Below are positions 3,917 through 29,412 of a stretch of DNA of 33,525 nt, piece after piece (within the stretch, counting starts at the first letter, position 1; every line of letters begins with the position of its first letter). A program made the position numbers and the translations under genes. The notes beneath the pieces are model-generated. The model was not told the origin of the DNA. It ran no database searches and saw nothing but the letters and a program-made list of their open reading frames with translations. Location: positions 9,946 through 43,470 of the forward strand of contig CAZOZW010000010.1 in the NCBI GenBank assembly GCA_964584385.1, read 5' to 3'. Source of the DNA: an uncultured Candidatus Peribacteria bacterium (GTDB lineage: Bacteria > Patescibacteriota > Gracilibacteria > CAIRYL01 > GCA-016699755).

Positions 3917-4885
3917 ATGAACTATTGGGTAACGAGCATAAAACGGGTTTTTGCATATGCGGCAGCCGGAGCATGGCGTAATCGCATTAATCTCTTTTTT
4001 TCGGGGGCGGCGCTTTCATTCCTTTTCTTTTTTATGCATTGCGCCGGGCTGGGCGTTGCCGTCAGCGGTGGCGTGATCGACAACGTGCAACAAAAAATCG
4101 ATATTGCGGTGTTTTTGCAAAATTCCGCCGATTCGTTTCAAGAAGAAGCTTTTCGGTTGGCGCTCGAACGAAAGAAGAAAACCGGCGAGATCCGCGATTA
4201 CTGGAAGCTCGATAAAGACGAAGCGTTTATGATGTTTAAAGAGCAATACCCGGCGCAAACCCGCTTTTTAGAACGCTATCAACTGGCGAATCCACTTTCG
4301 ACCGTGTTCGGCATCACCCCGCAACCGGGCGCCGCAGGAGCTGCCACAATTACCCAGTTCGTGCTCGAAGAGCAATGGCAAACGACCGTCGACCAAAATC
4401 GCTTTCGACAAAGCACCGAAGAGCGGGCGCGGGCGCAGCGCGTTATGACCGTGCTCGAAACAAGCCGCACCTTTATCTACGCTTTGCAAACCTTCTTTTT
4501 TGCCATCGGCTTTGTGCTGGTGCTTTACTTCGTCTCAGAGGCGATTCGTCGCCATCATCGCGAAATGGTGATTATGCGGCTGGTGGGCGCGCGGTTTTTC
4601 TTCATCCGCATGCCGTACTTGATCGAAGGTTTGCTCGTTACTGCAATCGCACTTATATTCAGTATCTTTCTCTTTGCTCGCTTTTTAGATGCCGTCCGCG
4701 CAGCGGCAAACAACATGCTCGCCGGATTGGGCATTGAAGAAAGCTTTATCGAAACGGCGCTCGGCGAATCAACGAGCTCGAACATAGTTGTGACCAACGG
4801 CTTTTTTATGATATTACTTTCAGCGGTGGCGGCTTTTGTCGCGATTGAATGGGCGCTTCGAAAACGTCTGTTCCACCAGATTTAA
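3917..4885 (+). CDS. ftsX: Cell-division ABC permease-like protein FtsX
   Basis: One N-terminal TM, a roughly 150-aa extracytoplasmic domain, then three C-terminal TMs. MRLVGARFFFIRMPYLIEGLL is typical of FtsX. Confidence 0.8.
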   Translation: MNYWVTSIKRVFAYAAAGAWRNRINLFFSGAALSFLFFFMHCAGLGVAVSGGVIDNVQQKIDIAVFLQNSADSFQEEAFRLALERKKKTGEIRDYWKLDKDEAFMMFKEQYPAQTRFLERYQLANPLSTVFGITPQPGAAGAATITQFVLEEQWQTTVDQNRFRQSTEERARAQRVMTVLETSRTFIYALQTFFFAIGFVLVLYFVSEAIRRHHREMVIMRLVGARFFFIRMPYLIEGLLVTAIALIFSIFLFARFLDAVRAAANNMLAGLGIEESFIETALGESTSSNIVVTNGFFMILLSAVAAFVAIEWALRKRLFHQI

Positions 4886-5939: not shown

Positions 5940-6308
5940 ATGAATCCATACTATAGAAATCAGGTTCTTCGCCTGAGATACTTTTTTGTTGAGATCAAGA
6001 ATCAATTTGAGACTTCTCAATGCCTTACAGAGCAGCATTCATCATATGTAGCCGAAAAGTGCCCCAGCAGCGCAGAGCATCTTTTGGAGTTATCACCCGG
6101 ATACATCAAGACTTTGTATTTATCGATTGGAGAGCCGCAGTATTCAATACTCACTCATCGATTTGATTTGGTTACAACAAATTTCAAAAAGTTGAACCAA
6201 CGAGCCACATCTCTACATGATAAAATCGGACTCATCAGACACCTTATCGTTCTATCGCAGAATTTTATCAATCTTCTCGATACACTTTTGCTAAACGACC
6301 TTGAATGA
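5940..6308 (+). CDS. Hypothetical small soluble protein (122 aa), island 1
   Basis: SD GAGG 8 nt upstream. It has its own promoter and terminator. I recognise no family motif. Confidence 0.6.
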   Translation: MNPYYRNQVLRLRYFFVEIKNQFETSQCLTEQHSSYVAEKCPSSAEHLLELSPGYIKTLYLSIGEPQYSILTHRFDLVTTNFKKLNQRATSLHDKIGLIRHLIVLSQNFINLLDTLLLNDLE

Positions 6309-6316
6309 TCTTTTAT

Positions 6317-6343
6317 AACCGCGTGTATATACGCGGTTTTTTT
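6317..6343 (+). terminator. Rho-independent terminator
   Basis: Stem AACCGCGT/ACGCGGTT with a 6-nt loop, followed by a T-run. Confidence 0.8.
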
Positions 6344-6362
6344 GAGCCATTATTCGCTTCAT

Positions 6363-6391
6363 TTGACATTGCATACTATCGAAAGTAAAGT
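6363..6391 (+). promoter_or_regulatory. Promoter TTGACA-17-TAAAGT
   Basis: A consensus -35 and 17-nt spacing, about 90 nt upstream of ATG 6480. Confidence 0.55.
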
Positions 6392-6479
6392 AACCATCCA
6401 ATCGTAAGCAACGGTTGCCACGTGCAACTCGCTTCGTTGGGAATGAACCTTAACCTAAATCTCCACGGGAGCAATAAAC

Positions 6480-6788
6480 ATGAACGAACCAGTTAGAAAT
6501 CTACTGATGAATCTTATGTTCTTAAAAGAATCGCGAGACTTTGTTGAGCTTAAGGAGCGATATAAGATTGTAGAAAAAGAAATATCTAATGCGATATGTC
6601 GGGTTGATCGTAACTTTGAGACTATCTGCAATTACTACTTAAAGTTGTTCAAGAAGATGGTGCAAAACGGCATTGTCTATGAAAACGATATCTATCCGAT
6701 TCTTGGGATTTTGAGCCAATGGTACGGCGTAACCGAAATCTACGCAATACCGGTAGAAATCGATAAGAACAAGGCACGTCTAATGTAA
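6480..6788 (+). CDS. Hypothetical small protein (102 aa), first gene of a two-gene operon
   Basis: SD GGGAG 9 nt upstream. The next gene begins 14 nt after its stop. Confidence 0.6.
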   Translation: MNEPVRNLLMNLMFLKESRDFVELKERYKIVEKEISNAICRVDRNFETICNYYLKLFKKMVQNGIVYENDIYPILGILSQWYGVTEIYAIPVEIDKNKARLM

Positions 6789-6802
6789 GCGGAGAAACGA
6801 AT

Positions 6803-7186
6803 ATGAGCCAAAAAATAAGAGAGAAACTTTTTCAGACCAAGGCGATATTGGCAAATGCCTTAAGCCGAGATCTTGTGAGTTTTTACGATGATATTGCTCG
6901 CTGGAGTGATAATCGCGATATTTATCTTTTATACCGACTTATTGATCTATGGTACAACGAGGAGGCAAGCCTTTTGGGTCGGCAGCATGGGATTGATTTG
7001 CCGATGGCAGTTCAAAGATTGTTGCAAACGACTGTGCTGTTCGGTCAGCAATACAATGCCCTGCAGTATAGCGATGCCAGCAAATGCAACGTGCAAGAGC
7101 AGTTGCAAAACATCAACAATGTTATCCGGCTCATCAAGGAACTTGAAGCACTTTGTGATGCAATGCTGAATAAGCTTGAAAAGTAG
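6803..7186 (+). CDS. Hypothetical small helical protein (127 aa)
   Basis: SD GGAG 9 nt upstream. It is followed by a strong terminator. Confidence 0.6.
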   Translation: MSQKIREKLFQTKAILANALSRDLVSFYDDIARWSDNRDIYLLYRLIDLWYNEEASLLGRQHGIDLPMAVQRLLQTTVLFGQQYNALQYSDASKCNVQEQLQNINNVIRLIKELEALCDAMLNKLEK

Positions 7187-7207
7187 GCACAGAGGTTCTG
7201 TTATCTT

Positions 7208-7238
7208 CTCCTCACCGATTCATCGGTGGGGAGTTTTT
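7208..7238 (+). terminator. Rho-independent terminator
   Basis: An 11-bp stem, CTCCTCACCGA/TCGGTGGGGAG (one G.U pair), with a 4-nt loop and a T5 run. Confidence 0.8.
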
Positions 7239-7245
7239 CTATTTA

Positions 7246-7274
7246 TTGCATAATACTGCATTAACACGTATAAT
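7246..7274 (+). promoter_or_regulatory. Promoter TTGCAT-17-TATAAT, overlapping palindromic element copy B
   Basis: The -35 abuts the left arm of the element. The perfect TATAAT lies in the 16-nt centre of the palindrome. Confidence 0.55.
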
Positions 7275-7293
7275 AACGTATTAATGCGGTATT
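7252..7293. repeat. 42-bp palindromic element, copy B
   Basis: aatactgcattaa cacgtataataacgta ttaatgcggtatt. One arm position has A replaced by G, which gives a G.U pair only in plus-strand RNA. Confidence 0.9.
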
Positions 7294-7309
7294 TCTTTTT
7301 ACAACAAAC

Positions 7310-7729
7310 ATGACATTTCAATTTCTTGCACAAATGGTGCAAAAGCCGCGGCGCACTATTGAATCGTTCTTTTTTCGTCATCATCTTTCCATTAAAAACC
7401 CTGCCGATGTGCGCATGTACTTAAATACCATACAAAGTGGCAAGCGCATCGAAACCAAACAACGCAGTACGGCTCACTTAAAACCGTATCAATTCAAACC
7501 CAAGCCCGAACCAAACTTTTTAGATATCGATAATAATGCTTTTTTAGAGCGGGGGATGGAGCGCATGCTCAAGCGTGAGAAGTGGAGCGATTTTTTACTG
7601 ATCAAAAAGATCTTCGGCGCAGAGCGGATCAAAGATCGAATCGAGAGGCAAATTGTACAAGAACAACGATATGACAGAGAACCATCGGCGTTTTTAATCC
7701 GCTGTGAAGAATATTTTGACAATCCTTAG
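7310..7729 (+). CDS. Hypothetical basic protein (139 aa), possible N-terminal HTH
   Basis: No SD. The ATG lies 16 nt after copy B. The N-terminus FLAQMVQKPRRTIESFFFRHHLS looks HTH-like by eye only. Confidence 0.5.
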   Translation: MTFQFLAQMVQKPRRTIESFFFRHHLSIKNPADVRMYLNTIQSGKRIETKQRSTAHLKPYQFKPKPEPNFLDIDNNAFLERGMERMLKREKWSDFLLIKKIFGAERIKDRIERQIVQEQRYDREPSAFLIRCEEYFDNP

Positions 7730-7839
7730 AATCTCAAGTAAAAGATACATCCAACAGAATACACTGCGCGGTTTTAAAAACACGCAACGTGTTAGTTGGA
7801 GATTTTGAACCTAAGCATCAACGAGACTCGGAGAATAAA

Positions 7840-8238
7840 ATGTCAGATAAAGAAACTCTTTGCCAAAAAATCGATGCGGTTCTGTCATACTATGACATGA
7901 ACCCATGTCTTAACGAAAAAATTCGATTCTCTGGGCAACAATCGCACATTATTTACAATGATTGTTCTGTGTCCTTTCGGATGGGCTATTACAAAGTGCT
8001 TGCCGATATTAAGAGGTATGCGAAAGCAACTAATGATATAATGGTTGCGTACCTTGCTCAGCAGCTCTGCAATGAAGCTGATGAAATGCAGAAGTTTATC
8101 GCCTTTTGCTACGATACTATTGAAAAAATGGGGGGAGAAGAAGTTGAGGATGCAATTTGTGAATGCAGAGAATGCTTTGTCTCCAAATCACAAATGAAGT
8201 TGATAGGTTGCAAGCGTGAGTTGCAATATTCAGCTTAA
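7840..8238 (+). CDS. Hypothetical small Cys-containing protein (132 aa)
   Basis: ORF 7789..8238 trimmed to ATG 7840, which has SD GGAG 7 nt upstream. C-terminal CECRECF..C cluster. Confidence 0.6.
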   Translation: MSDKETLCQKIDAVLSYYDMNPCLNEKIRFSGQQSHIIYNDCSVSFRMGYYKVLADIKRYAKATNDIMVAYLAQQLCNEADEMQKFIAFCYDTIEKMGGEEVEDAICECRECFVSKSQMKLIGCKRELQYSA

Positions 8239-8249
8239 GTTCAAAACGC

Positions 8250-8278
8250 TTCCCCGGTGCATGCCGGGGAGTTTTTTT
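8250..8278. terminator. Rho-independent terminator between convergent genes
   Basis: Stem TCCCCGG/CCGGGGA with a 6-nt loop and a T7 run. It sits between the stops at 8238 (+) and 8286 (-). Confidence 0.75.
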
Positions 8279-8285
8279 GATGCAA

Positions 8286-8663
8286 TTACGTTCGCGAATG
8301 AATCCCGATCTTGTTTCCTTCGGTGTCGTTGGCAGTAATCATAAAACCGAATTCGCCAATATCTTTGCGTGGCATTACAATGGTCCCACCAGCTTGTTGT
8401 ACCTTTTTTTCGTCTGCGGTTAAATCTCCACTTGGTGAAGTAAAATACACCATCACTCCGTCTTGCGAGGGGGTATAATCTTTACCGCTGCATAATGCTC
8501 CACTGGCTCCATAGCCATCATCCATCGGAAACCACGCCATCTCACCATCCTCCCACGGGATCATCTCGAAATTTTTATAGCCGAAAACTGCTTGGTAAAA
8601 CGCTTTCGCACGATCCATATCTGTTACCGGAACCTCGACCCAACCAATTGGATTTTTTTGCAT
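8286..8663 (-). CDS. VOC (glyoxalase/bleomycin-resistance) family protein
   Basis: 125 aa. The N-terminal IGWVEVPVTDMDRAKAFYQAVFG and the overall pattern are typical of small VOC proteins. Confidence 0.75.
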   Translation of the reverse strand: MQKNPIGWVEVPVTDMDRAKAFYQAVFGYKNFEMIPWEDGEMAWFPMDDGYGASGALCSGKDYTPSQDGVMVYFTSPSGDLTADEKKVQQAGGTIVMPRKDIGEFGFMITANDTEGNKIGIHSRT

Positions 8664-8922
8664 GTTTGTCGAACAGAGAAAACTTCAATGTAAACATGCG
8701 CTTATTCGAGGCAGAAGTCAATAACGAGAATCGTTATCATCATTGGAAAAAACCGGCTTTTGGTTGTGCTATGGGAGCAGATAATTTGCAAATACTTGCT
8801 TTTTATAAATTATCATGTTAAAAATACTTACCATTTTCTCTTCGACGTTATAAAAAAACGTACGAGCGAAGTGGAGAATTGAACCTTTTTATCAACGACA
8901 AGTTATTCAAGGGGTGGGTAAG

Positions 8923-9519
8923 ATGAGCTACAGAAACTTAGCGAAAACACTTTTAAACGAGGTCAGCCAGGTAGGATTAGGTATGGAAGAGATGAATGAA
9001 TTTATCTATGAATTGGAAACACTCGTTAAATGGAAATATGCTTACGACGAAGGGAGTCGGGAACGGCGATTGCTAGAGCTGGTAGATAGCTGGCGCGGAG
9101 ACATTGATTATCGTAAAAAAAATCAATTGAGCGATGTTCCGGCGTTTTATGAGGAGTCGATTAAGGATTACCTCGAGATCTTGGTTGAAATAACAAAGCC
9201 GCTCGCTGAAATGGACTTGTATGAGCTAATCAACAAGATTTGCATGCACATCATCAGCTACCCCGGCTTAAGCCCATCAAACCATATGTTTGAGTTTGAG
9301 GCCGTAATACCAGCTTTGATTATAAAGCTTAATCTAGCTAATCAGAACGAGCTGGCGGTTGAAATCAAAACGAAGTATGAAAGCATACTTACTCAAGATG
9401 CCCAAGATGGAGCAAGAACAGAGTCGTGGAGTAGTGTTGCTTTTTATGCAGCACAACGACGCAGAAAATTTTGCGATTGGCTTTTACCAAAGTTACATCA
9501 GTTCAATATTAATTCTTGA
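8923..9519 (+). CDS. Hypothetical soluble protein (198 aa), island 1
   Basis: ATG 8923 is preceded by GGGGTGGG; GTG 8914 is an alternative start. I recognise no family. Confidence 0.6.
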   Translation: MSYRNLAKTLLNEVSQVGLGMEEMNEFIYELETLVKWKYAYDEGSRERRLLELVDSWRGDIDYRKKNQLSDVPAFYEESIKDYLEILVEITKPLAEMDLYELINKICMHIISYPGLSPSNHMFEFEAVIPALIIKLNLANQNELAVEIKTKYESILTQDAQDGARTESWSSVAFYAAQRRRKFCDWLLPKLHQFNINS

Positions 9520-11722: not shown

Positions 11723-11757
11723 ATATCTCTCTAAAATGTTAACGACTCTGCTTTGAA

Positions 11758-11799
11758 AATACTGCATTTACACGGTGGTTCGCGTCTTAATGCAGTATT
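11758..11799. repeat. 42-bp palindromic element, copy C
   Basis: aatactgcattta cacggtggttcgcgtc ttaatgcagtatt. It directly abuts the stop codon at 11800-11802 of the upstream (minus-strand) gene. Confidence 0.9.
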
Positions 11800-12307: not shown

Positions 12308-12826
12308 TCAATCATCTGACTCAATGCGCGACTTTAACCTTTTAAAATACTCTCTTATTGGTGAAAAAATATACCTCAACATTAAAAAGATAACCAGAAC
12401 TATGATCGAGTAAAATAAACCCATCAACAATGTGGTTAAATATGATGACAGAAATGAGTAAATGGGGCTATCGGCATTCCTGTTAAAAATATTGCGCCCA
12501 TGACCAAAAAACAATTTCAAGAACTCGCCAGCCATGAACATGGCATTAATGCCCAAAAACTTATCAATAACTACTACGCATTGAAGGAGTGATTTTGCAT
12601 AGGCGCTTATCATTAAGTTTTTAGATTCCTTTAATCGATCACGTTTTATTAAGTATGAGTCTAAAAAAACATAGGCAAACCACCAGCAAAAGATTCCACT
12701 GAGTATGCCGAGTATCCAAACGAGAGAATCGGTTAGTTCTAAAGCAAAATACCATGCCACAATTGTATTGACCGCAACAAGCAATACCCATTTTAGCTTC
12801 GTTTTTCGTGTTGCTGGCAGTCTCAT
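12308..12826 (-). CDS. Hypothetical four-TM membrane protein (172 aa)
   Basis: Four hydrophobic segments. It starts 19 nt downstream of the tRNA-Ser 3' end. Confidence 0.55.
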   Translation of the reverse strand: MRLPATRKTKLKWVLLVAVNTIVAWYFALELTDSLVWILGILSGIFCWWFAYVFLDSYLIKRDRLKESKNLMISAYAKSLLQCVVVIDKFLGINAMFMAGEFLKLFFGHGRNIFNRNADSPIYSFLSSYLTTLLMGLFYSIIVLVIFLMLRYIFSPIREYFKRLKSRIESDD

Positions 12827-12845
12827 TCTTTGTCAGAATTATTTA

Positions 12846-12937
12846 TGGCGGAGAGAGAGGGATTCGAACCCTCGGTCCCGATAAATCGGGACAACGGTTT
12901 TCGAGACCGTCCCATTCGACCGCTCTGGCATCTCTCC
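12846..12937 (-). tRNA. tRNA-Ser (anticodon CGA), CCA encoded
   Basis: The reverse complement is GGAGAGATGCCAGAGCGGTCGAATGGGACGGTCTCGAAAACCGTTGTCCCGATTTATCGGGACCGAGGGTTCGAATCCCTCTCTCTCCGCCA. It has a 7-bp acceptor stem, an anticodon stem ACGGT/ACCGT with loop CTCGAAA, a long variable arm and a GGTTCGAATCC T-arm. Confidence 0.9.
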
Positions 12938-12968
12938 GCGTGTCGAGTCAAAAATCAATCTACGCTAT

Positions 12969-13667
12969 TTAGCGTCTTCTTGGCAATTGCTTTTCTCTTT
13001 TTGTGTAGGTAAATGTAATTCCCGAATCGCCGAATGAAAGCTTGTGCCCGCTTACTCGAACATCTTTTTTGCTATTGCGCGACAGAATAAAGATACACAT
13101 CTCATGCGCTCTCAATCGGGTATTGAAATAATCGCGTGCCTCACTCTGTGCTCCAATCGCTTGAATAATCCTTTGGTTGATTTCTTGGTACGAATGATGA
13201 AATTCAGTGATCTGACTTCTTTTCGATTCTTCTATCAAGTCTTTTATAACATCTGGCAGGGTATAACGAAGTACGGTTTCGTTGTTCCCATGAAGAGATC
13301 TGGCGGTTTCAAGTGGTAAGTCTTGAATTGGTTTAACTATTTCAACGAACGGTTTCTCGTTCGAGTTATCTCTTTTTCCACCACGATTATCTTTGCGAAT
13401 CTTGTTTTGAGTCGGCGGTGTGATTACATGATTTATTTTTGAACCTGTGGATTGCCTTGCTTTTTTAAGAATATCAATTGCCCTAAGTGTCACAGCTTCA
13501 TCTACCGTGTTTACTTGAGCAATATAATTAAGCAGCATGCGATAGTGGTTCTGGAGTTCTTCGGTGATCTGCTGAATCTCAAACAGCTCATTCGGGGTGA
13601 TTGTGCCGGGCTTTGCTTTTAATTTCTTATCGAGTTCATCTACGATATTAAGCTCAGGATTGTTCAT
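12969..13667 (-). CDS. Hypothetical protein (232 aa)
   Basis: Long ORF in the same orientation as its neighbours, with a basic central linker. No recognised motif. Confidence 0.55.
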   Translation of the reverse strand: MNNPELNIVDELDKKLKAKPGTITPNELFEIQQITEELQNHYRMLLNYIAQVNTVDEAVTLRAIDILKKARQSTGSKINHVITPPTQNKIRKDNRGGKRDNSNEKPFVEIVKPIQDLPLETARSLHGNNETVLRYTLPDVIKDLIEESKRSQITEFHHSYQEINQRIIQAIGAQSEARDYFNTRLRAHEMCIFILSRNSKKDVRVSGHKLSFGDSGITFTYTKREKQLPRRR

Positions 13668-16602: not shown

Positions 16603-17952
16603 ATGGGTGAATATTTGCGAAAGACAATACCGGAGAATTTCTTTTTGCGACGCTGGTATTCGGTGGTTCGTTCAACTATGGCTGCCATGTATTATGGTTT
16701 TCCTGCCAAAGAATTACAAGTGATCGCCGTAACCGGTACCGATGGCAAAACCACAACCACTTCGATGATCGCGCACATTTTGCGCAAATGTAATAAAAAA
16801 ATCTTAACCATCACCACAGCCGAAATTCGCATGGGGCAATTCGTGATTCCTGTTGATAAGCGTACCACCCCCGATGCCTGGATGTTACAGCGATTTTTCA
16901 AAGAAGCGGTTAAACAAAATATCGAAATCGTCGTACTCGAAGTATCATCACACGCCTTGGTACAAGGTCGAATTTTTGGGGTCGGGGTCGATTCCGCCGT
17001 ACTTACGAATATAACCCCCGAACATCTCGATTATCATCGCACTTTTGTTGGGTATCAACTGGCGAAGAAAAAGCTGTTCAAAGATTACCTCAAGCCAAAC
17101 GGGGCGGTCATCTTAAACCTCGATGACCAATCGGGCAGAGCATGGAGCCGTGAGTTTTTGGCAAAAGGCAAAAAAGTATATACCTATTCTGCCAAAGGCG
17201 ATGCCCGCGCAACCCGTGCCGCCGAAGAGATTACCTATCACGACAAAGGCGTGGAGTTCTTATTACACGATAAAAACAAAGAGTGCAATGAGCGAGTGTT
17301 CGTGCCGGTGTTTGGATCGTTTAACGTCGCCAATGCCTTGGCGGCTATTCTGGCGGTGCGCCCGGTTGGCATCTATTGCCCCGAGGCGGCCGTGGCGATG
17401 AAAGATTTTCCCGGTATAGCGGGGCGTATGGAGCGCATAAGTGTTGGGCAAGATTTTACCGTTTTTGTCGATTTTGCACTTACCCCCGGAGCATTCACGA
17501 AAATGCTTGCCTCGGCGCGACGCATGGCAAAGCGGCACAAACTCATCGTCGTATTCGGCTCACCCGGCAGCCACCCCGACCCCGAGGTTCGAAAAGAGAT
17601 CGGCAGAATTGTTGCTAACGAAGCAGATCTGGCAATTGTGACCGATGACGAGACATATTATCAGAATCCGAAACAGATTCGCTCGCAACTGCTCGATGGA
17701 GCATTTGCAGCCTTGGGCGAAGCGGCATTCGTCGAAAAGGTAAAAGAGATCGGTGATCGCCAGCGCGCAATCGAATTCGCCATTTCAAGTGCGGTAAAGG
17801 GTGACGTGGTGGTGATCTCGGGAATGGGTCATTTGACCACCCGCAATATGGGCGGCACAGAAACATCGTGGAGCGATATTGAAGTAGTGAAATCGCTGTT
17901 AAGAAAACGAGTCTATTCTGCGAACAACCTTCCTTCTTCAGAAACTCAATGA
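16603..17952 (+). CDS. murE: Mur ligase, MurE-like (UDP-MurNAc-tripeptide synthetase)
   Basis: P-loop VTGTDGKTTT, the DYHRTFVGYQLAKKKLF motif, and GRMERI. 449 aa, so the N-terminal domain is short. Confidence 0.7.
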   Translation: MGEYLRKTIPENFFLRRWYSVVRSTMAAMYYGFPAKELQVIAVTGTDGKTTTTSMIAHILRKCNKKILTITTAEIRMGQFVIPVDKRTTPDAWMLQRFFKEAVKQNIEIVVLEVSSHALVQGRIFGVGVDSAVLTNITPEHLDYHRTFVGYQLAKKKLFKDYLKPNGAVILNLDDQSGRAWSREFLAKGKKVYTYSAKGDARATRAAEEITYHDKGVEFLLHDKNKECNERVFVPVFGSFNVANALAAILAVRPVGIYCPEAAVAMKDFPGIAGRMERISVGQDFTVFVDFALTPGAFTKMLASARRMAKRHKLIVVFGSPGSHPDPEVRKEIGRIVANEADLAIVTDDETYYQNPKQIRSQLLDGAFAALGEAAFVEKVKEIGDRQRAIEFAISSAVKGDVVVISGMGHLTTRNMGGTETSWSDIEVVKSLLRKRVYSANNLPSSETQ

Positions 17953-18824
17953 AAAATGGCGTCTTACTGATCGATAAACCCGAAGGCATGGCGAGCTTTG
18001 CCGTTATTAGCGAGGTGCGCAAAAAACTCGGTATAAAAAAAGCCGGGCACGCCGGCACACTCGATCGCTTTGCCAGTGGTGTACTGGTGGTAGCGGCGGG
18101 TGAGGCAACAAAAGCGCTCTCTAGTTTCTTGATCTCGACCAAAGTCTACGAAACCGAGATCGTATTCGGGGTAACCAGCAAAACCCTCGACCCAACATCC
18201 GACCTTGAGATCGGTGAACCGATAGTCGAACCGAAAAAAGCCGAACTCGAAACGGCGATCAAAGATTTTATCGGCGAGATCGAACAAGTCCCACCGGTTT
18301 ATTCGGCATTAAAACGCGGTGGAAAACGAGTCAGCGACCGCGCCCGTAAAGGCGAGAATATCGAGCTTAAGCCACGTCCGGCAACTGTTTTATCTGCCGA
18401 TATTTTAAATAGTGGTATTTACGAAGACGGACGGTTCAAAGATCATTTCTACGTTACCGTGCGATTAAACGTTGGCTCGGGGTTTTACGTACGCAGCTTT
18501 GCCCGTGATTTTGCAAAAAAATTCAACACCACCGGCATTTGCGCACGGTTGCGTCGTCTGTCTGTTGGTCCGTTTTTAGTCGGCGATTCCATTTCTCCCG
18601 AGGTGATCAACGAATTTGCCGTACGTGAGATCAGCCCCGAAATGTTTTCGTTCGAATCGGTGCATATCAGTAAGCCCCACGCCGAGCGCTTTATGGCAGG
18701 GAATGCTGTGTATATTCCTCACGAAAATGCTGAACGGGTGGCGGTGTTTTGCCTAAAAAACTGGCTTGGGTTTGGTAAAATGCAAGAGGGGATGCTGCAA
18801 CCGGCGCGCGTGGTAAAGGGTTGA
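17949..18824 (+). CDS. truB: tRNA pseudouridine(55) synthase TruB
   Basis: GVLLIDKPEGMASF..GHAGTLDRFASGVLVV contains the catalytic Asp motif. ATGA overlap with murE. Confidence 0.9.
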   Translation: MKNGVLLIDKPEGMASFAVISEVRKKLGIKKAGHAGTLDRFASGVLVVAAGEATKALSSFLISTKVYETEIVFGVTSKTLDPTSDLEIGEPIVEPKKAELETAIKDFIGEIEQVPPVYSALKRGGKRVSDRARKGENIELKPRPATVLSADILNSGIYEDGRFKDHFYVTVRLNVGSGFYVRSFARDFAKKFNTTGICARLRRLSVGPFLVGDSISPEVINEFAVREISPEMFSFESVHISKPHAERFMAGNAVYIPHENAERVAVFCLKNWLGFGKMQEGMLQPARVVKG

Positions 18825-18849
18825 CAAAATCGTTTTCATGTATTTAAAT
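18821..18849 (+). promoter_or_regulatory. Promoter TTGACA-17-TTAAAT, overlapping the truB stop
   Basis: A consensus -35 and 17-nt spacing, about 90 nt upstream of ATG 18940. Confidence 0.55.
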
Positions 18850-18939
18850 GCAGCCGGTTTTAACCGTGTGTCGTATTCTCGGTAAACGGCGAATGCGACC
18901 TGATCTTTTCATCATTACTTTTCGATAGGGGAAACACCA

Positions 18940-19290
18940 ATGATTCTTTTCGGACTCATCTTGATTCTTGTTGGATTAAGCTACGTTTACGGGCTATTTC
19001 GACTGTTCGTTGCCCGAAGATTTCTCAAATATGTTTTTGTTACTTTTGTTTGGGCGACTGCTGGCTTTTGTTCGGTTGTATATCGCCAAGAGATTTATTT
19101 GGCTCAAGATTTTTTTGCCAAGATTATAGAAGATGTTCTTCTGTATCTGCTTGATCCGCTACCCATCATATTCTTACTGATGGTAATATTGCCACTGGTA
19201 ATTGCGGTTTTACGGTATATCTATCGCGATTGGCAAAGAGAGCGAAGTAATCGTAAACAACAAAACGCGATTGGAAAATCGAAAGAATGA
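18940..19290 (+). CDS. Three-TM miniprotein P1 (116 aa) with a basic C-tail
   Basis: SD GGGG 9 nt upstream. Three hydrophobic segments, then the tail RDWQRERSNRKQQNAIGKSKE. Confidence 0.65.
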   Translation: MILFGLILILVGLSYVYGLFRLFVARRFLKYVFVTFVWATAGFCSVVYRQEIYLAQDFFAKIIEDVLLYLLDPLPIIFLLMVILPLVIAVLRYIYRDWQRERSNRKQQNAIGKSKE

Positions 19291-19300
19291 AACAAACAAT

Positions 19301-19333
19301 GGAGTCGACATTAACTCGACTCCATCTCTTTTT
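19301..19333 (+). terminator. Rho-independent terminator
   Basis: Stem GGAGTCGA/TCGACTCC with a 7-nt loop, followed by atctcttttt. Confidence 0.7.
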
Positions 19334-19339
19334 ACATGT

Positions 19340-19381
19340 TCTACTTCATTTACACGTATCTCACCGTATTAAAGCAGTATT
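19340..19381. repeat. 42-bp palindromic element, copy F (degenerate left arm)
   Basis: tctacttcattta cacgtatctcaccgta ttaaagcagtatt. It keeps the 13+16+13 geometry. The left arm matches the consensus at 10/13 positions and the right arm at 12/13. Confidence 0.7.
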
Positions 19382-19395
19382 TTATGCGAATATGC

Positions 19396-19424
19396 TTGAC
19401 GAAAATATATTCTTATTGAAAAAT
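19396..19424 (+). promoter_or_regulatory. Promoter TTGACG-17-AAAAAT
   Basis: Good -35 and 17-nt spacing. It starts 15 nt after copy F and lies 85 nt upstream of ATG 19509. Confidence 0.45.
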
Positions 19425-19508
19425 GCGCGCGATTCAATAGAATCGTGTATTGACGAACAACCATATGGTATGTGTCGTCTGGCCATTAAAAACATGGAGT
19501 GAAATCTG

Positions 19509-19802
19509 ATGACAAACGAATTATTGGTATTCTTCTTTTTCGTAGTTTTCGTTTTGATGACGACTTTTGAGTTCAAGCAACCTGGAACCTATCATTTCGG
19601 GTTTATTGTAAGCTTGATATCACTTTTGGTAATTGGATTATCTTTGATGTACCCCGTACAAACGGAAGAATGGACTTTGAAAGCACTTGATTTCACCTTT
19701 GGACTAATCCCAGTTCGCGAACTCATTGATGAGTACCGTGGAATATTCTTTGTTGGGGCGTTAGTCCTAATGCTCGCGTCTACCTTTTGGAATAGGAACT
19801 GA
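19509..19802 (+). CDS. Three-TM miniprotein P2 (97 aa)
   Basis: SD GGAG 9 nt upstream. Three hydrophobic segments. Confidence 0.65.
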   Translation: MTNELLVFFFFVVFVLMTTFEFKQPGTYHFGFIVSLISLLVIGLSLMYPVQTEEWTLKALDFTFGLIPVRELIDEYRGIFFVGALVLMLASTFWNRN

Positions 19803-19818
19803 GATAGCATTCATGTTG

Positions 19819-19855
19819 CCGGAGAATTACCTATTGCGTATTCTCCGGTTTTTTT
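19819..19855 (+). terminator. Rho-independent terminator
   Basis: Stem CCGGAGAAT/ATTCTCCGG with a 12-nt loop and a T7 run. Confidence 0.75.
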
Positions 19856-19936
19856 CTGTAATAGATTTGATTCGGCTTTTCGTGAGCACGAATACAATCG
19901 GTCCTTTCTTTTATCGGCTTGTTCACCGGAGGTAGT

Positions 19937-20308
19937 ATGTATATTTATATCGCCCTATTACTATTGATCGCGGGATGGGGGTTTATGATTCTGTTCTCAT
20001 TGATTTTCAGTTCGATTCGTATGATTCGGGTGAGACTCGGGCAGATCGAACCTTTGCCCGACCAAACCGCACGTATTCTGGTTCGATTTGTTTTAGGGGT
20101 AATCCTTATCATCTCTTTTGTTTTGATCAATAACAATGCCGGGCATGTCAGTCATTGGATGATGAACAGTTTGCCACCGGTTCCTGTTGATACGGTTATT
20201 TTATTCGTTATTTGCGGCTGGGGTCTTGCCCCGTTTGTTTACCGTCGACTTGTGCGCATTGCGCATGGTCGACTAATAAAGAATACTTCGGTTATGTTTC
20301 GAGCCTGA
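19937..20308 (+). CDS. Three-TM miniprotein P3 (123 aa) with a basic C-tail
   Basis: ORF 19919..20308 (TTG) trimmed to ATG 19937, which follows SD GGAGG. Three hydrophobic segments, then the tail YRRLVRIAHGRLIK. Confidence 0.65.
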   Translation: MYIYIALLLLIAGWGFMILFSLIFSSIRMIRVRLGQIEPLPDQTARILVRFVLGVILIISFVLINNNAGHVSHWMMNSLPPVPVDTVILFVICGWGLAPFVYRRLVRIAHGRLIKNTSVMFRA

Positions 20309-20318
20309 TAAAAAATAT

Positions 20319-20346
20319 GCGGAGAGAGAACATCTCTCCGCTTTTT
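20319..20346 (+). terminator. Rho-independent terminator
   Basis: Stem GCGGAGAGA/TCTCTCCGC with a 5-nt loop and a T5 run. Confidence 0.8.
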
Positions 20347-20351
20347 AGAAA

Positions 20352-20393
20352 AATACTGCATTTATACGCAATTCACCGTATTAATGCAGTATT
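20352..20393. repeat. 42-bp palindromic element, copy D
   Basis: aatactgcattta tacgcaattcaccgta ttaatgcagtatt. An extra half-site, gcagtatt, follows at 20401-20408. Confidence 0.9.
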
Positions 20394-20529
20394 TTTGCTC
20401 GCAGTATTATCATTTGCCAAAACAAATATTCCATGATTAAATATCGCCGATTCACTTTGATGAATCTTTCGTATTTCAGTCCAATTCTTTTGCGACTGAA
20501 TTCTGAAACTTTACATAGGAGTTATACAA

Positions 20530-20925
20530 ATGATGACCAGTTACACGGTAGCATCTGTCATTCTGGTTTGTTTGTTTTGTAGTATGTTATTGATTGCCGG
20601 TATGATTCGGCAATGGCGACAGAATAAAAACCAGTCTGAAACCAATCGATTGGATTTCAATATTCAGTGGTTACGCCGAGCCTGCTTGTTCACCTTGTTG
20701 ATCGCAACGATTACGCTCGTAATGCGTCCGCAATATTTCTTGCCGTTGTTGCCGCAGTCCGACGCTTCTGCTGGTATAACGATCACGATTTTCGGATCGA
20801 TATTCTGCGTTTTTCTGTACTTGGGTTTGCATCAAGTTGTTGCTTTCTTTACGCAAATCCGCTCCCAGAAAGATAAAGAGTACGAGCAGCTCTCGAAGTC
20901 GATTTTTTCGAGATCTGAGCAATAA
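20530..20925 (+). CDS. Three-TM miniprotein P4 (131 aa) with a charged C-tail
   Basis: SD AGGAG 8 nt upstream. Three hydrophobic segments, then the tail RSQKDKEYEQLSKSIFSRSEQ. Confidence 0.65.
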   Translation: MMTSYTVASVILVCLFCSMLLIAGMIRQWRQNKNQSETNRLDFNIQWLRRACLFTLLIATITLVMRPQYFLPLLPQSDASAGITITIFGSIFCVFLYLGLHQVVAFFTQIRSQKDKEYEQLSKSIFSRSEQ

Positions 20926-20938
20926 CTCTGTATGTGTT

Positions 20939-20966
20939 GCCCGGGGACCATCCCCCGGGCTTTTTT
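20939..20966 (+). terminator. Rho-independent terminator
   Basis: Stem GCCCGGGG/CCCCGGGC with a 6-nt loop and a T6 run. Confidence 0.8.
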
Positions 20967-20976
20967 AAAGTCTGAT

Positions 20977-21004
20977 TTGCAATGCGATATGCATATTGTA
21001 CAAT
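20977..21004 (+). promoter_or_regulatory. Promoter TTGCAA-16-TACAAT
   Basis: Good hexamers, 88 nt upstream of ATG 21092. Confidence 0.5.
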
Positions 21005-21091
21005 ATTTACGGTTCGAATGAATCGTGTTGGGCGATAAATCGAAGGATTATGTTGCCCGCCCTTTAACATCAACGTTTTTTGGAGAAGAAA

Positions 21092-21463
21092 ATGGAGAAC
21101 TACATCCACGTGGTTTTATTTGTTTGTACTGCTGTGTGGCTGCCACTTATTTTTATGATCTTGCTTTTTACCGGTTTATACATGGCAATCGTGTTTCGAC
21201 GGAGTATCGAAACTCCGTTCTTTTATTTGGTAAAAGTTTGGAATTTGATCGTTGGCCTTTTTATTGTTCTTTTAGCACTTGGGATGGTTACTGACCGCGA
21301 CGAGACCGGGTTTAATGCCTTTCTAAAAGAATACCTGCCGATGATACCTGAAACTGCTCTAGCGTCGGGGGTCGCCTTTATGCTGATTGTGAGTTGTACT
21401 CTGTATTGCATGGGAATTCTCGGTTGTAAGTTGATTGCTATTTCACTACAGGAGTCGAAATAA
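21092..21463 (+). CDS. Three-TM miniprotein P5 (123 aa)
   Basis: ORF 21080..21463 (TTG) trimmed to ATG 21092, which has SD GGAG 6 nt upstream. Its stop TAA shares one base with the next start (TAATG). Confidence 0.65.
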   Translation: MENYIHVVLFVCTAVWLPLIFMILLFTGLYMAIVFRRSIETPFFYLVKVWNLIVGLFIVLLALGMVTDRDETGFNAFLKEYLPMIPETALASGVAFMLIVSCTLYCMGILGCKLIAISLQESK

Positions 21464-21858
21464 TGGAACTGATTCTATTTTATATTGTCTGTTTCTTGTG
21501 GCACATGCTGCTTTTAGCCAGTCTGATCAAGTGGATTGATGTTGGTTACCAAGACGACCTAATGGTCGTTACACGGCGTGCTGAGGCAATCGTTCTGATT
21601 CCGCCATTTTGCGTCTTATTGGCTGCAGAAATCATAATCGCTGTTTTAGATGTTCAGCCGTCGATTCCCCGAATCGATGTTGGTTTTCCTTTGTTATTGA
21701 TTTTGGCTGCGTGCTTGTTTTTTGTTGGCATTATGCTGTTTATGCTTGTGCGATTTGCAGTGATTCGGTTTTTCGTATCACAACATGTTGCCAATCAACT
21801 CATGATGCAGGGTATTATTGATCAAGCGAAACAATCGATACTTACTAAAATCCACTAA
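21463..21858 (+). CDS. Three-TM miniprotein P6 (131 aa)
   Basis: SD AGGAG 8 nt upstream. Translationally coupled to P5. Confidence 0.65.
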   Translation: MELILFYIVCFLWHMLLLASLIKWIDVGYQDDLMVVTRRAEAIVLIPPFCVLLAAEIIIAVLDVQPSIPRIDVGFPLLLILAACLFFVGIMLFMLVRFAVIRFFVSQHVANQLMMQGIIDQAKQSILTKIH

Positions 21859-21870
21859 GCGTTCTTGTTT

Positions 21871-21898
21871 GCCGGTGAATTCGTTCACCGGCTTTTTT
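21871..21898 (+). terminator. Rho-independent terminator
   Basis: Stem GCCGGTGAA/TTCACCGGC with a TTCG loop and a T6 run. Confidence 0.8.
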
Positions 21899-21904
21899 AC
21901 GGTA

Positions 21905-21933
21905 TTGACAAAAGTATATTGATCGTTCAAAGT
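21905..21933 (+). promoter_or_regulatory. Promoter TTGACA-17-CAAAGT
   Basis: Consensus -35 but a weak -10. It lies 95 nt upstream of ATG 22029. Confidence 0.4.
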
Positions 21934-22028
21934 GCTATTGAATCGATGAATGATCGGTTTCGCAAAAGCAAGTCTAACTTGGCTTTTGCAGCAGTCCATT
22001 CAAAACACCACAGTAGATGGGAGAAGTC

Positions 22029-22358
22029 ATGTCTTTAATACATATTATTGAATCGACAATAGCTCTGGCATTACTTTTTGTGCTGGTGAATGTTTTTCTT
22101 GAATATCGAGAAAGACAGAAAAACTTCATAAGTCACGAGGTGCATTCGGTGCGCCAACAATATAGCCTGGTTTGGCTTGGTATTCTCATCATTATCGAAG
22201 CCGCATTAATAGTAATCGGAGATAAGATCTTTTTCTTATCGACGATGGTCGATGCGAGTATGGTCTTGTATTTGCTTTTGATCGGCATGCTTGTAATAGC
22301 ATTATTCTACTATGCCGTAGGTGCTTGTGTATTTATACATTCAATCCCGAAAAGGTAG
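22029..22358 (+). CDS. Three-TM miniprotein P7 (109 aa)
   Basis: ORF 22017..22358 (GTG) trimmed to ATG 22029, which has SD GGGAG 5 nt upstream. Confidence 0.65.
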   Translation: MSLIHIIESTIALALLFVLVNVFLEYRERQKNFISHEVHSVRQQYSLVWLGILIIIEAALIVIGDKIFFLSTMVDASMVLYLLLIGMLVIALFYYAVGACVFIHSIPKR

Positions 22359-22369
22359 TTTGCGATTCA

Positions 22370-22397
22370 CCGGCGACAGCGTGTCGCCGGCTCTTTT
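22370..22397 (+). terminator. Rho-independent terminator between P7 and the convergent ligA
   Basis: Stem CCGGCGAC/GTCGCCGG with a 5-nt loop, followed by ctctttt. Confidence 0.7.
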
Positions 22398-22399
22398 GC

Positions 22400-25012
<2,613 letters not shown>

Positions 25013-25723: not shown

Positions 25724-25756
25724 GAGTCGCGTATATTTGCGACTTCATCCTCTTTT
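25724..25756 (+). terminator. Rho-independent terminator
   Basis: Stem GAGTCGC/GCGACTT (one G.U pair) with an 8-nt loop, followed by catcctctttt. Confidence 0.6.
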
Positions 25757-25766
25757 GATTTTATAA

Positions 25767-25808
25767 AATACTGCATTAATACGGTGATCTGCGTTTAAAT
25801 GCAGTATT
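25767..25808. repeat. 42-bp palindromic element, copy E
   Basis: aatactgcattaa tacggtgatctgcgtt taaatgcagtatt. Confidence 0.9.
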
Positions 25809-28534: not shown

Positions 28535-29251
28535 TCAATTGTTTTTTGGTTCCTGATTGCCAAATCCTTCATGTTTAATGCAGTTTTGTATGTCGTTCGC
28601 ACATTGTTCATCGGTAAAAAGTCGCATTGCAAACGGATATACCTGAGCCGATTCGTCAGTTTTTTTATGCATTGCTTTGAGTTCGTAGCACTTTTGCCAT
28701 AATTGCATGCATCGTACGACGGTGGCATTTATCGTTGCATCGATGATTACACCGTTTTGCTTATCGCCACAATCTTCACCCTGTTTCAAAAAAATATATT
28801 GCGGCATGAATGGCACTTTATTCAAAAAGCGTACGAATGTACCATTTCTTTTGTCGATGATCTCGTCGATCTGATCTGAGATCACATATTTATAATCATA
28901 ATAATCAACGACTGTGCTGATCCAAACAATAGGATCTTTGATCAACAAGTATTTGTTTTCGCGAACAGCTCTGCGTGATTTTTTCTCTACATTCTGACAG
29001 ACCGGTTCTTTTACTTCCATAAGCAAAATTTGATTTTTGCCGATAAACTCATTCACTAAACTCCGGTTTTGTTGGAGCGAATCGTACAAATCAGGCTTAA
29101 TTGGATATGAAGTGCTGATGGTTTCGCCGAGCGTGGCTGAATGGATTTGCTCGAATAATCTTTGATTATACAAAACCATCTGACCCGCTTGCTCTCTTGC
29201 TTTTTTGCTTGCCGGTAATTGCGCTGCGCGGTGTTTTTCGATTGTGTTCAT
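28535..29251 (-). CDS. Hypothetical protein (238 aa)
   Basis: Long ORF. ATG 29251 is preferred over GTG 29290. No recognised motif. Confidence 0.55.
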   Translation of the reverse strand: MNTIEKHRAAQLPASKKAREQAGQMVLYNQRLFEQIHSATLGETISTSYPIKPDLYDSLQQNRSLVNEFIGKNQILLMEVKEPVCQNVEKKSRRAVRENKYLLIKDPIVWISTVVDYYDYKYVISDQIDEIIDKRNGTFVRFLNKVPFMPQYIFLKQGEDCGDKQNGVIIDATINATVVRCMQLWQKCYELKAMHKKTDESAQVYPFAMRLFTDEQCANDIQNCIKHEGFGNQEPKNN

Positions 29252-29412
29252 CGGCGGAGTAAAACGTTGGTGAATATTGCGCACATTCACAACCCGGGCG
29301 AGTCGTTCATCAAAAATTCAAGATAACTCGAATAAGGCATGGTATATCAACAAATAAGTTGAGATATGTCAAATATTCGTGTAAAATAGAAATTGAAACT
29401 ATATTTTTCATC

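Follow-up and report, generated by a model that had tools for sequence, protein, structure and literature searches.

Seven small orphan membrane-protein genes arrayed between truB and ligA in an uncultured Candidatus Peribacteria bacterium

Known membrane immunity systems and the truB–ligA array

BmiA and PmiA are membrane immunity proteins against colicin-M-like bacteriocins (Burkholderia, Pseudomonas), which consist of approximately 137 amino acids (aa) and possess 3–4 transmembrane (TM) segments and a cytoplasmic C-terminus (PMC5277000). They share this topology but almost no sequence, except for a short outward motif, D[T/S]xGxP, located beside a TM segment. Orphan copies of this type without a toxin gene also occur, and a shield-like binding or occlusion was proposed as the mode of action (PMC5277000). 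Tandem strings of non-identical immunity genes are also known, such as esaG and tsaI of Staphylococcus aureus, the latter encoding a membrane protein, and tipC of streptococci; TsaI neutralises a membrane-depolarising toxin, and the repertoire of such arrays is strain-variable and shaped by recombination (PMC9484751). Here, we describe seven plus-strand open reading frames (ORFs), denoted P1–P7, which encode proteins of 97–131 aa in tandem between truB and ligA of an uncultured Candidatus Peribacteria bacterium (GCA_964584385.1, contig CAZOZW010000010.1, 9,946–43,470). The whole stretch of DNA analysed, 33,525 nucleotides (nt) in length, is called the window, and coordinates of the locus refer to positions in it. 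All seven ORFs were found exactly where a first-pass annotation of this DNA had placed them. The array was interpreted as an accessory, lineage-specific island in a genome of the candidate phyla radiation (CPR), comprising seven genuine genes in six separately terminated units that share one membrane layout, in a slot variable between lineages and apparently polymorphic at P3–P4. We put the probability of this reading at approximately 0.85.

Similar to BmiA/PmiA, the seven proteins are small and polytopic, with three TM segments and a predicted cytoplasmic C-terminus; mutual sequence conservation is nearly absent, and no toxin gene accompanies them. A marginal motif in the predicted outward loop beside a TM segment may be a further parallel. 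Unlike BmiA/PmiA, which are single genes, seven stand here in a row, and this putative motif reads LPxφPxxD instead of D[T/S]xGxP. No sequence or profile link was found between the two sets. The esaG, tsaI, and tipC arrays resemble the present locus in that several different small genes lie on one strand. To their strain-variable repertoires can tentatively be compared the contig breaks at P3–P4 and an approximately 17%-diverged stretch of P4, both observed in one sister sample. The paralogues of those arrays are however plainly homologous and contain conserved blocks, whereas the seven exhibit no significant mutual similarity, and the units here each possess their own terminator.

Gene signals, selection, and variability of the slot

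The seven ORFs were judged to be real genes based on the Shine–Dalgarno (SD)-like sites, the terminators, and the substitution pattern of a P4 allele. An SD-like site was located at all seven starts, being GGAG at 4–9 nt upstream of the ATG in six cases and GGGGA at 7 nt upstream in P1, against a background of 4.8% per 16-nt window. This agrees with the good SD that the first-pass annotation had read for each gene, and for P4 and P7 the sites fit its start codons better than those of the metagenome gene calls. Each of the six transcription units closes with a GC-rich hairpin followed by a T-run; terminators had been counted for only five of them, and the number was corrected to six by adding that of P2. 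The proposed coupling overlap of P5 and P6 (TAATG, one base) was confirmed by the coordinates. A 2.3-kb contig from the sister metagenome sample 3300040789 (L014) matched the window at 100% identity over P5, P6, P7, and the 3′ end of ligA, and exhibited 21 substitutions, all located in codons 73–112 of P4. A synonymous rate (dS) of 0.74 and a nonsynonymous rate (dN) of 0.084 were evaluated for this variant allele by the Nei–Gojobori method, giving an omega of approximately 0.11. The six amino-acid changes are conservative and occur in and just past TM3, while the loop-2 peptide LPLLPQSDASAG was unaltered despite five synonymous changes. P4 is under purifying selection.

Each of the seven proteins forms a singleton cluster at 90% identity, and the full-length variant P4 is absent from this cluster collection. 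An exhaustive phmmer search with the concatenated seven (E ≤ 0.001) against 1.84 billion representatives of approximately 15 billion proteins gave self-matches only, with no cross-hits. Nothing above the cut-off was obtained for the seven from Pfam, NCBIfam, PHROGs, or PADLOC; the profile searches, which had been suggested as a check on the array, assigned none of them to a characterised family. No match was detected among PDB sequences, plasmids, viral contigs, or 50,697 phage genomes. Foldseek comparison of the AF2 models, which are low-confidence, with PDB and BFVD gave no match below E = 0.3. As far as sequence searches reach, the seven proteins are true orphans. Lineage-specific small membrane orphans are common in CPR genomes (PMC6744442).

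Syntenic relatives were reached through LigA homologues (62–64% identical) and exact-protein look-ups. Four of them keep the order of the flanks (Mur ligase and truB on one side of the slot; ligA, RidA, and further genes on the other), while the slot content differs. In the locus L019, ligA and truB are separated by 48 bp and the slot is empty. The slot of L020 (12109–14222) contains a PMT-family glycosyltransferase and one ORF, and those of L018 (12208–16210) and L021 (12156–16145) contain PMT and three secreted- or lipoprotein-like orphans. The slot orphans of the relatives include a 361-aa protein with a faint match to PG_binding_1, lipoprotein-like proteins of 209–221 aa, and secreted-looking proteins of 207–215 aa, and the cargo of the slot in L018, L020, and L021 appears to be envelope-related. 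Since the array is missing from the syntenic relatives and the slot is empty or otherwise filled there, the array is accessory rather than core, and the slot turns over. This answers the question of truB–ligA synteny that the first-pass annotation had raised. Genome (GTDB) and metagenome scans with TruB gave best matches of 33–45% identity and no close relatives. The TruB of the window can be aligned over its full length with its counterparts in the syntenic relatives, but at only about 45% identity, indicating that the lineage is poorly sampled. The nearest relatives of LigA are 58–65% identical, one of which (CP065009.1) is named Candidatus Peregrinibacteria. When the slot proteins of the relatives were compared with the window by tblastn, and the seven miniproteins with every fetched locus, no match below E = 0.05 was obtained; the array as a decayed PMT or other slot gene was rejected on this blank result.

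Within the source population, variation was observed at P3–P4. Another contig of the sister sample (L033) was identical to the window from truB, through P1 and P2, to 12 nt before P3, where it ends. L014 starts inside P4, and its positions 1–131 are approximately 17% diverged, adjoining 2.2 kb of perfect identity. The exact P3 protein was recorded from one contig only, the 49-kb JGI contig of the source sample; none was recorded from the sister sample, whose contigs stop before reaching P3 from either side. The window matches this JGI contig (49,249 bp), the end of which was calculated from the coordinates to fall near window position 4351, so that the two must stem from different assemblies of one population. 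That both contigs end at P3–P4 (window 19926–20865) is what would be expected of an assembly-graph bubble between two haplotypes, and suggests recombinational replacement of the segment. These data suggest that P3–P4 is polymorphic within the source population, in the form of a recombination mosaic or haplotype bubble limited to two genes of the array.

Membrane layout, a probable common origin, and possible roles

TM segments were assigned by the Kyte–Doolittle scale using 19-residue windows and a threshold of 1.6, and the orientation was examined from the charge distribution. Three hydrophobic segments were obtained at this threshold for six of the seven proteins; the third segment of P2 is shorter (residues 78–94, mean 2.06 over 17 aa). 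All seven have the same charge layout: the N-terminus ahead of TM1 is uncharged or acidic, with no positive charge, loop 1 is basic, the short, proline-containing loop 2 is acidic or neutral, and the tail is basic. Together with the positive-inside rule, this leads to a predicted N-out/C-in orientation for each. Single-sequence AF2 models of P4 (pLDDT 73) and P5 (pLDDT 66), both of low confidence, consist of three long helices with a chain break at the loop-2 prolines. Hydropathy, charge distribution, and these two models are all consistent with the three-helix architecture described in the first-pass annotation, apart from the short third segment of P2. In P2 and P7, the tail amounts to 2–3 residues only. 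Outside the array, the other 30 kb of the window contained no small ORF with at least three TM segments, and 155 kb of the relatives (seven related loci) contained only three, unclustered, corresponding to a local enrichment of more than 100-fold. Chance falls far short of explaining such clustering, and the array is no chance feature.

This layout is also that of the class I holins (lambda S105 type), which are defined by a size of approximately 100–130 aa, three TM segments, N-out/C-in topology, and a charged cytoplasmic tail (PMC9636201), all of which are predicted here. Holin-like proteins would build up in the membrane until they assemble into oligomeric holes, serving lysis, the release of proteins, or programmed death, and the tight terminators round each gene would suit such toxic products. 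The window however contains no lysis cassette or prophage context, with neither endolysin, spanin, nor phage gene nearby in 33.5 kb; no holin family of PHROGs or Pfam was matched, and no match was obtained in the 50,697 phage genomes or BFVD. A usable dual-start motif is also lacking, as no SD precedes the alternative starts located upstream in P3, P5, and P7. To our knowledge, seven consecutive holins without cargo have no precedent. A membrane-permeabilising role was hence evaluated as very unlikely.

The GC content was 0.385–0.418 in the array and 0.48–0.505 in truB and ligA (array coding 0.409, array intergenic 0.394, whole window 0.447), so that the AT-richness of the array noticed by eye holds in numbers (approximately 0.41 versus 0.50). 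Its coding strand is T-rich with an AT skew of approximately −0.2, and the fraction of T at the second codon position of the seven genes is 0.39–0.53, similar to that of the window's own SBF membrane protein. Such composition could mean that the seven are unrelated young genes of little or no function, born de novo from T-rich DNA or acquired singly, whose architecture is simply what T-rich ORFs encode. T-rich sequence readily gives transmembrane ORFs, and the de novo TM proto-genes of yeast are likewise orphans, which lie on a T-rich strand, encode TM helices, and lack homologues (PMC7005711). The lack of homologues and of significant mutual similarity, and a GC content below that of the core genes, as in the other orphan blocks of the window, also fit this account. 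Against it, dS of 0.74 at an omega of about 0.11 marks P4 as old and constrained, SD-like sites, terminators, and one positive-inside topology are common to all seven, and small three-TM ORFs are otherwise scarce (three in 155 kb of the relatives and none in the window outside the array). The ancestral-looking gap of 48 bp in L019 would also have offered no raw material for gene birth. The present ORFs differ from the yeast proto-genes in these gene signals, in their one common topology, in the long-standing purifying selection on at least P4, and in being bacterial. We regard this account as hardly probable. That the ORFs are no genes at all, but arose by chance or are remnants of one larger gene for a membrane protein that has decayed, would be consistent with the absent homologues and the T-rich composition; the SD-like sites at 7/7 starts and terminators at 6/6 units, the P4 substitutions skewed to synonymous, the absence of any tblastn likeness to PMT or other slot genes of the relatives, and the size of the minus-strand ORFs across the array region (all ≤86 aa) make this negligibly probable.

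By every search method used, the seven proteins are unrelated to each other in sequence, as had been stated from inspection: all-against-all BLASTP gave no pair below E = 0.04, and only a marginal motif in loop 2 remains aside from this. MAFFT aligned an LPxIPxxD-type element of loop 2 just before TM3, with D often following, which reads SLPPVP in P3, FLPLLP in P4, YLPMIP in P5, VQPSIP in P6, LLDPLP in P1, FGLIP in P2, and FLSTMV in P7. When the block search was confined to loop 2, 9–22 of 500 sets of shuffled loops scored as well as the motif LPxφPxxD (p of approximately 0.02–0.04), while the same search on loop 1 gave nothing. Pairwise z-scores of 2.2–3.4 were obtained within P3–P6. The loop-2 motif and the more than 100-fold local enrichment make old tandem duplication likelier than seven independent arrivals. 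We consider it somewhat probable that the seven are old tandem paralogues diverged beyond recognition, of which only hydrophobicity, topology, and the loop-2 turn (LPxφPxxD) would have been constrained.

By analogy with BmiA/PmiA, the seven may act as stand-alone membrane-embedded shield proteins of an immunity type, an idea we hold as our best guess, but tentatively and with clear reservation. In such a mechanism, a toxin acting on the membrane or in the periplasm, or the membrane target of this toxin, would be bound or occluded by the inserted helices together with the short outward loop; the paralogues would each be directed at a different toxin variant, and separate promoters and terminators would permit separate dosing. 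The first-pass annotation had likened the array to immunity, holin, or host-interaction proteins, of which the holin-like topology was retained, while no partner gene is linked in 33.5 kb and no homologue was found, and the resemblance remains an analogy. Membership in a holin or immunity family is not established.

Several results weigh against the island of paralogous shield proteins, in part or as a whole. No toxin, bacteriocin precursor, C39/ABC exporter, secretion system, lysin, integrase, or phage gene was identified in the 33.5 kb from the gene lists and Pfam, and the absence of a toxin, lysin, or transporter partner reported in the first-pass annotation was borne out. While BmiA/PmiA genes adjoin a gene or remnant of a ColM-domain bacteriocin, no Colicin_M or other toxin domain or remnant occurs within the same 33.5 kb; and while the esaG, tsaI, and tipC arrays lie beside a toxin gene of the type VII secretion system, the window contains neither a secretion system nor any gene of the LXG/Rhs/CdiA type. 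The intergenic small ORFs, examined as bacteriocin precursors, overlap the terminators and exhibit no leader-peptide features. A gene for immunity to a circulating toxin can usually be expected to have homologues elsewhere, and none was found for the seven. The predicted outward surface is very small, consisting of an N-terminus of 0–4 aa and a loop of 10–27 aa. Regarding common origin, forward and reversed alignment scores showed no overall difference, an unbiased block and motif search over the whole proteins gave hydrophobic stretches only, without significance, and neither a duplication signature at the DNA level nor repeats between the seven genes were detected. The p-value of the loop-2 motif is lost after correction for the regions and widths tried; the signals of common origin are marginal and partly post hoc, and paralogy is not statistically secure. 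Regarding transcription, boxes of the TTGACA type, claimed for four units by the first-pass annotation, are readable upstream of P1, P2, P4, P5, and P7, but promoter-like sites on both strands together numbered 13 versus 10.3 ± 4.1 in shuffled sequence, which is no enrichment; independent promoters of the units are therefore plausible only. A common upstream motif was sought in the six upstream regions and was not found, the best blocks at 8–10 nt being not significant. Finally, the polymorphism at P3–P4 rests on two short contigs of one sister sample, for which low coverage could produce the breaks but not the diverged stretch.

The setting of the slot allows for another role. In bacteria, it is common for a small membrane protein to attach by its helices to a larger one. 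The seven might similarly serve the resident envelope machinery (for example, transporters, pili, or the apparatus for division or peptidoglycan) as accessory subunits or modulators. The slot lies amid cell-envelope genes, with Mur ligases on both sides and FtsX upstream, and in the relatives it holds envelope genes (PMT, the faint PG_binding_1 protein, and a lipoprotein-like ORF); the purifying selection on P4 and the predominance of membrane proteins of unknown function among CPR-enriched families (PMC6744442) are also in line with it. Partners in core machinery should be conserved along with it, yet none of the syntenic relatives carries the array and homologues were found nowhere, and seven genes in separately terminated units with population polymorphism are unusual for housekeeping subunits. 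This role is unlikely, though it deserves consideration.

Small membrane proteins of CPR/Patescibacteria are suspected to mediate the symbiotic lifestyle. The seven could be variable surface or host-interaction proteins of an episymbiont, whose outward N-terminus and loop 2 would contact a host or phages, with this contact driving diversification. The lineage (CPR/Peregrinibacteria), the accessory and lineage-variable nature of the array, the mosaic P3–P4 haplotype within otherwise identical flanks, and the location of the only semi-conserved element in loop 2 fit this explanation. A mere 10–27 residues of the loop and 0–4 of the N-terminus would however be exposed, under the cell wall, and the invariant exposed loop of the P4 variant with its conservative changes in TM3 is the opposite of antigenic diversification. 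We hence consider host interaction distinctly improbable.

Returning to the shield proteins, a wider form of the idea would make the locus a new kind of repertoire in CPR, in which independently transcribed, hyper-diverged three-helix proteins are diversified by cassette-like recombination (the P3–P4 mosaic) and guard an ultra-small episymbiont from phages or from membrane- or envelope-targeting toxins of the community, with no cognate toxin alongside and a family evolving too fast for sequence searches. This is a long shot, which is less probable still than the simple shield function. If a protective repertoire is true, immunity by small membrane proteins reaches CPR bacteria, and such families evolve beyond homology searches, which argues for searches based on architecture. 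If the seven are ordinary lineage-specific membrane proteins, the locus is one more orphan island of CPR. In either case, it offers a compact example of seven separately terminated orphans of one architecture in a slot turning over between lineages.

Features, repeats, and neighbouring genes

Table 1. Coordinates of the array and associated features in the window.
Feature	Position	Strand	Description
truB	17949..18824	+	Left flank of slot, conserved; PF01509 TruB_N
P1 candidate promoter	18821..18849	+	TTGACA-N17-TTAAAT, overlaps truB stop; read from sequence
P1	18940..19290	+	116 aa, 3 TM, predicted N-out/C-in, basic 25-aa tail; orphan; identical in sister sample
P1 terminator	19299..19325	+	Hairpin and T-run
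Palindrome copy in array	19342..19383	+	Degenerate left arm
P2 candidate promoter	19416..19443	+	TTGAAA-N16-TAGAAT, 10/12 matches
P2	19509..19802	+	97 aa, 3 TM (third short), very short tail; identical in sister sample
P2 terminator	19819..19848	+	Hairpin then T7; 12-nt loop, hence overlooked by consensus scanner
P3	19937..20308	+	123 aa, 3 TM, LPPVP in loop 2, basic tail
P3 terminator	20319..20341	+	Hairpin and T-run
Palindrome copy in array	20349..20396	+	20-nt arms, 95% complementary
P4 candidate promoter	20414..20442	+	TTGCCA-N17-TTAAAT; read from sequence
P4	20530..20925	+	131 aa, 3 TM, LPLLPQSDASAG in loop 2, 30-aa helical tail; orphan
P4 terminator	20939..20960	+	Hairpin with 8 GC pairs and T-run
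P5–P6 candidate promoter	20977..21004	+	TTGCAA-N16-TACAAT
P5	21092..21463	+	123 aa, 3 TM, LPMIP in loop 2; orphan
P6	21463..21858	+	131 aa, 3 TM, QPSIP in loop 2; orphan; start overlaps P5 stop
P5–P6 terminator	21871..21892	+	Hairpin and T-run
P7 candidate promoter	21905..21933	+	TTGACA-N17-CAAAGT, weak −10 box; read from sequence
P7	22029..22358	+	109 aa, 3 TM, FFLSTMVDAS in loop 2; orphan
P7/ligA hairpin	22370..22390		Between convergent P7 and ligA; ends P7, possibly ligA as well
ligA	22400..24592	−	Right flank of slot, conserved; Pfam ligase domains
44-nt palindromic element copies	~11735-11780, 19342-19383, 20349-20396, 25744-25790	both orientations	Approximate full extents

The two palindromes that the first-pass annotation had seen inside the array are present, and were identified as copies of one 44-nt element, AAAATACTGCATTTAnACG-N8-CGTATTAATGCAGTATTTT, which occurs four times in 33.5 kb, always intergenic and in both orientations, where none is expected by chance. 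Those in the array sit right after the P1 and P3 terminators, directly upstream of the putative P2 and P4 promoters. For the RNA of 20309–20400, which covers the P3 terminator and the palindrome, two stable hairpins were predicted with a minimum free energy of −38.3 kcal/mol together. The element was not found in the related loci or viral contigs, and could be a repetitive extragenic palindrome (REP)-like element, an extra terminator, or an operator. The best upstream blocks of 12–14 nt were driven by this palindrome and by T-rich or promoter-like stretches. An upstream element similar to GAATGAATCG, spotted by eye, was rejected, as the motif search of the six upstream regions gave it no support.

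A 26-nt imperfect direct repeat brackets the array (18747–18772 and 22394–22419, 77% identical, with TTTTGCCTAAAA exact). It was considered as a mobile-island or att-like boundary and was rejected; the two copies fall within those parts of truB and ligA that code for the C-termini and are conserved in the relatives, and the repeat is therefore most likely due to chance. An integron gene-cassette array was also rejected, since the hairpins are near-perfect stems of 21–30 nt with T-runs, that is, intrinsic terminators, and the gene lists contain no integrase or recombinase. Type I toxin–antitoxin repeats, whose toxins have a single TM segment and fewer than about 60 aa and are paired with an antisense RNA, were rejected as well: the proteins here are of 97–131 aa with three TM segments, no Rfam match was obtained, and promoter-like sites do not exceed those of the shuffled sequence.

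Between P1 and P2, the metagenome annotation contains a 71-aa ORF (19287–19502, plus strand), whose ATG overlaps the P1 stop (ATGA) and which ends 7 nt before the P2 start. It crosses the P1 terminator hairpin and the palindromic repeat, is a singleton without homologues, and is probably spurious; if real, P1, this ORF, and P2 would be translationally coupled. At the other end of the array, the start of ligA differs between sources, giving a protein of 703, 730, or 760 aa.

The neighbours in the window encode FtsX, RecO, Mur ligases, PGM, a sigma-70 factor, RidA, UvrC, RecF, and an epimerase, interspersed with other orphans. A look-up of the exact epimerase protein, aimed at the DNA beyond the right end of the window, gave no record. 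A second orphan block was observed at 5940–9519 (plus strand), which consists of five or six small soluble proteins (102–201 aa) on one strand with a GC content of approximately 0.40, as in the array. The 201-aa protein at 8914–9519, the only member of this block scanned, gave no Pfam match. The block may be another accessory island. Between uvrC and recF, a 251-aa orphan is encoded at 28535–29290 (minus strand), where only a 41-aa ORF call separates the two genes in L019. The genes of GAPDH and PanD, located near truB in the relatives, are lacking in this genome. Together with the uvrC–recF orphan, this indicates that several inter-gene slots of the lineage differ from those of the relatives. 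A tRNA-Ser(CGA) was located at 12846–12937 between two further orphans (12308–13667, minus strand), one of 172 aa with four hydrophobic segments and the other a soluble protein of 232 aa.

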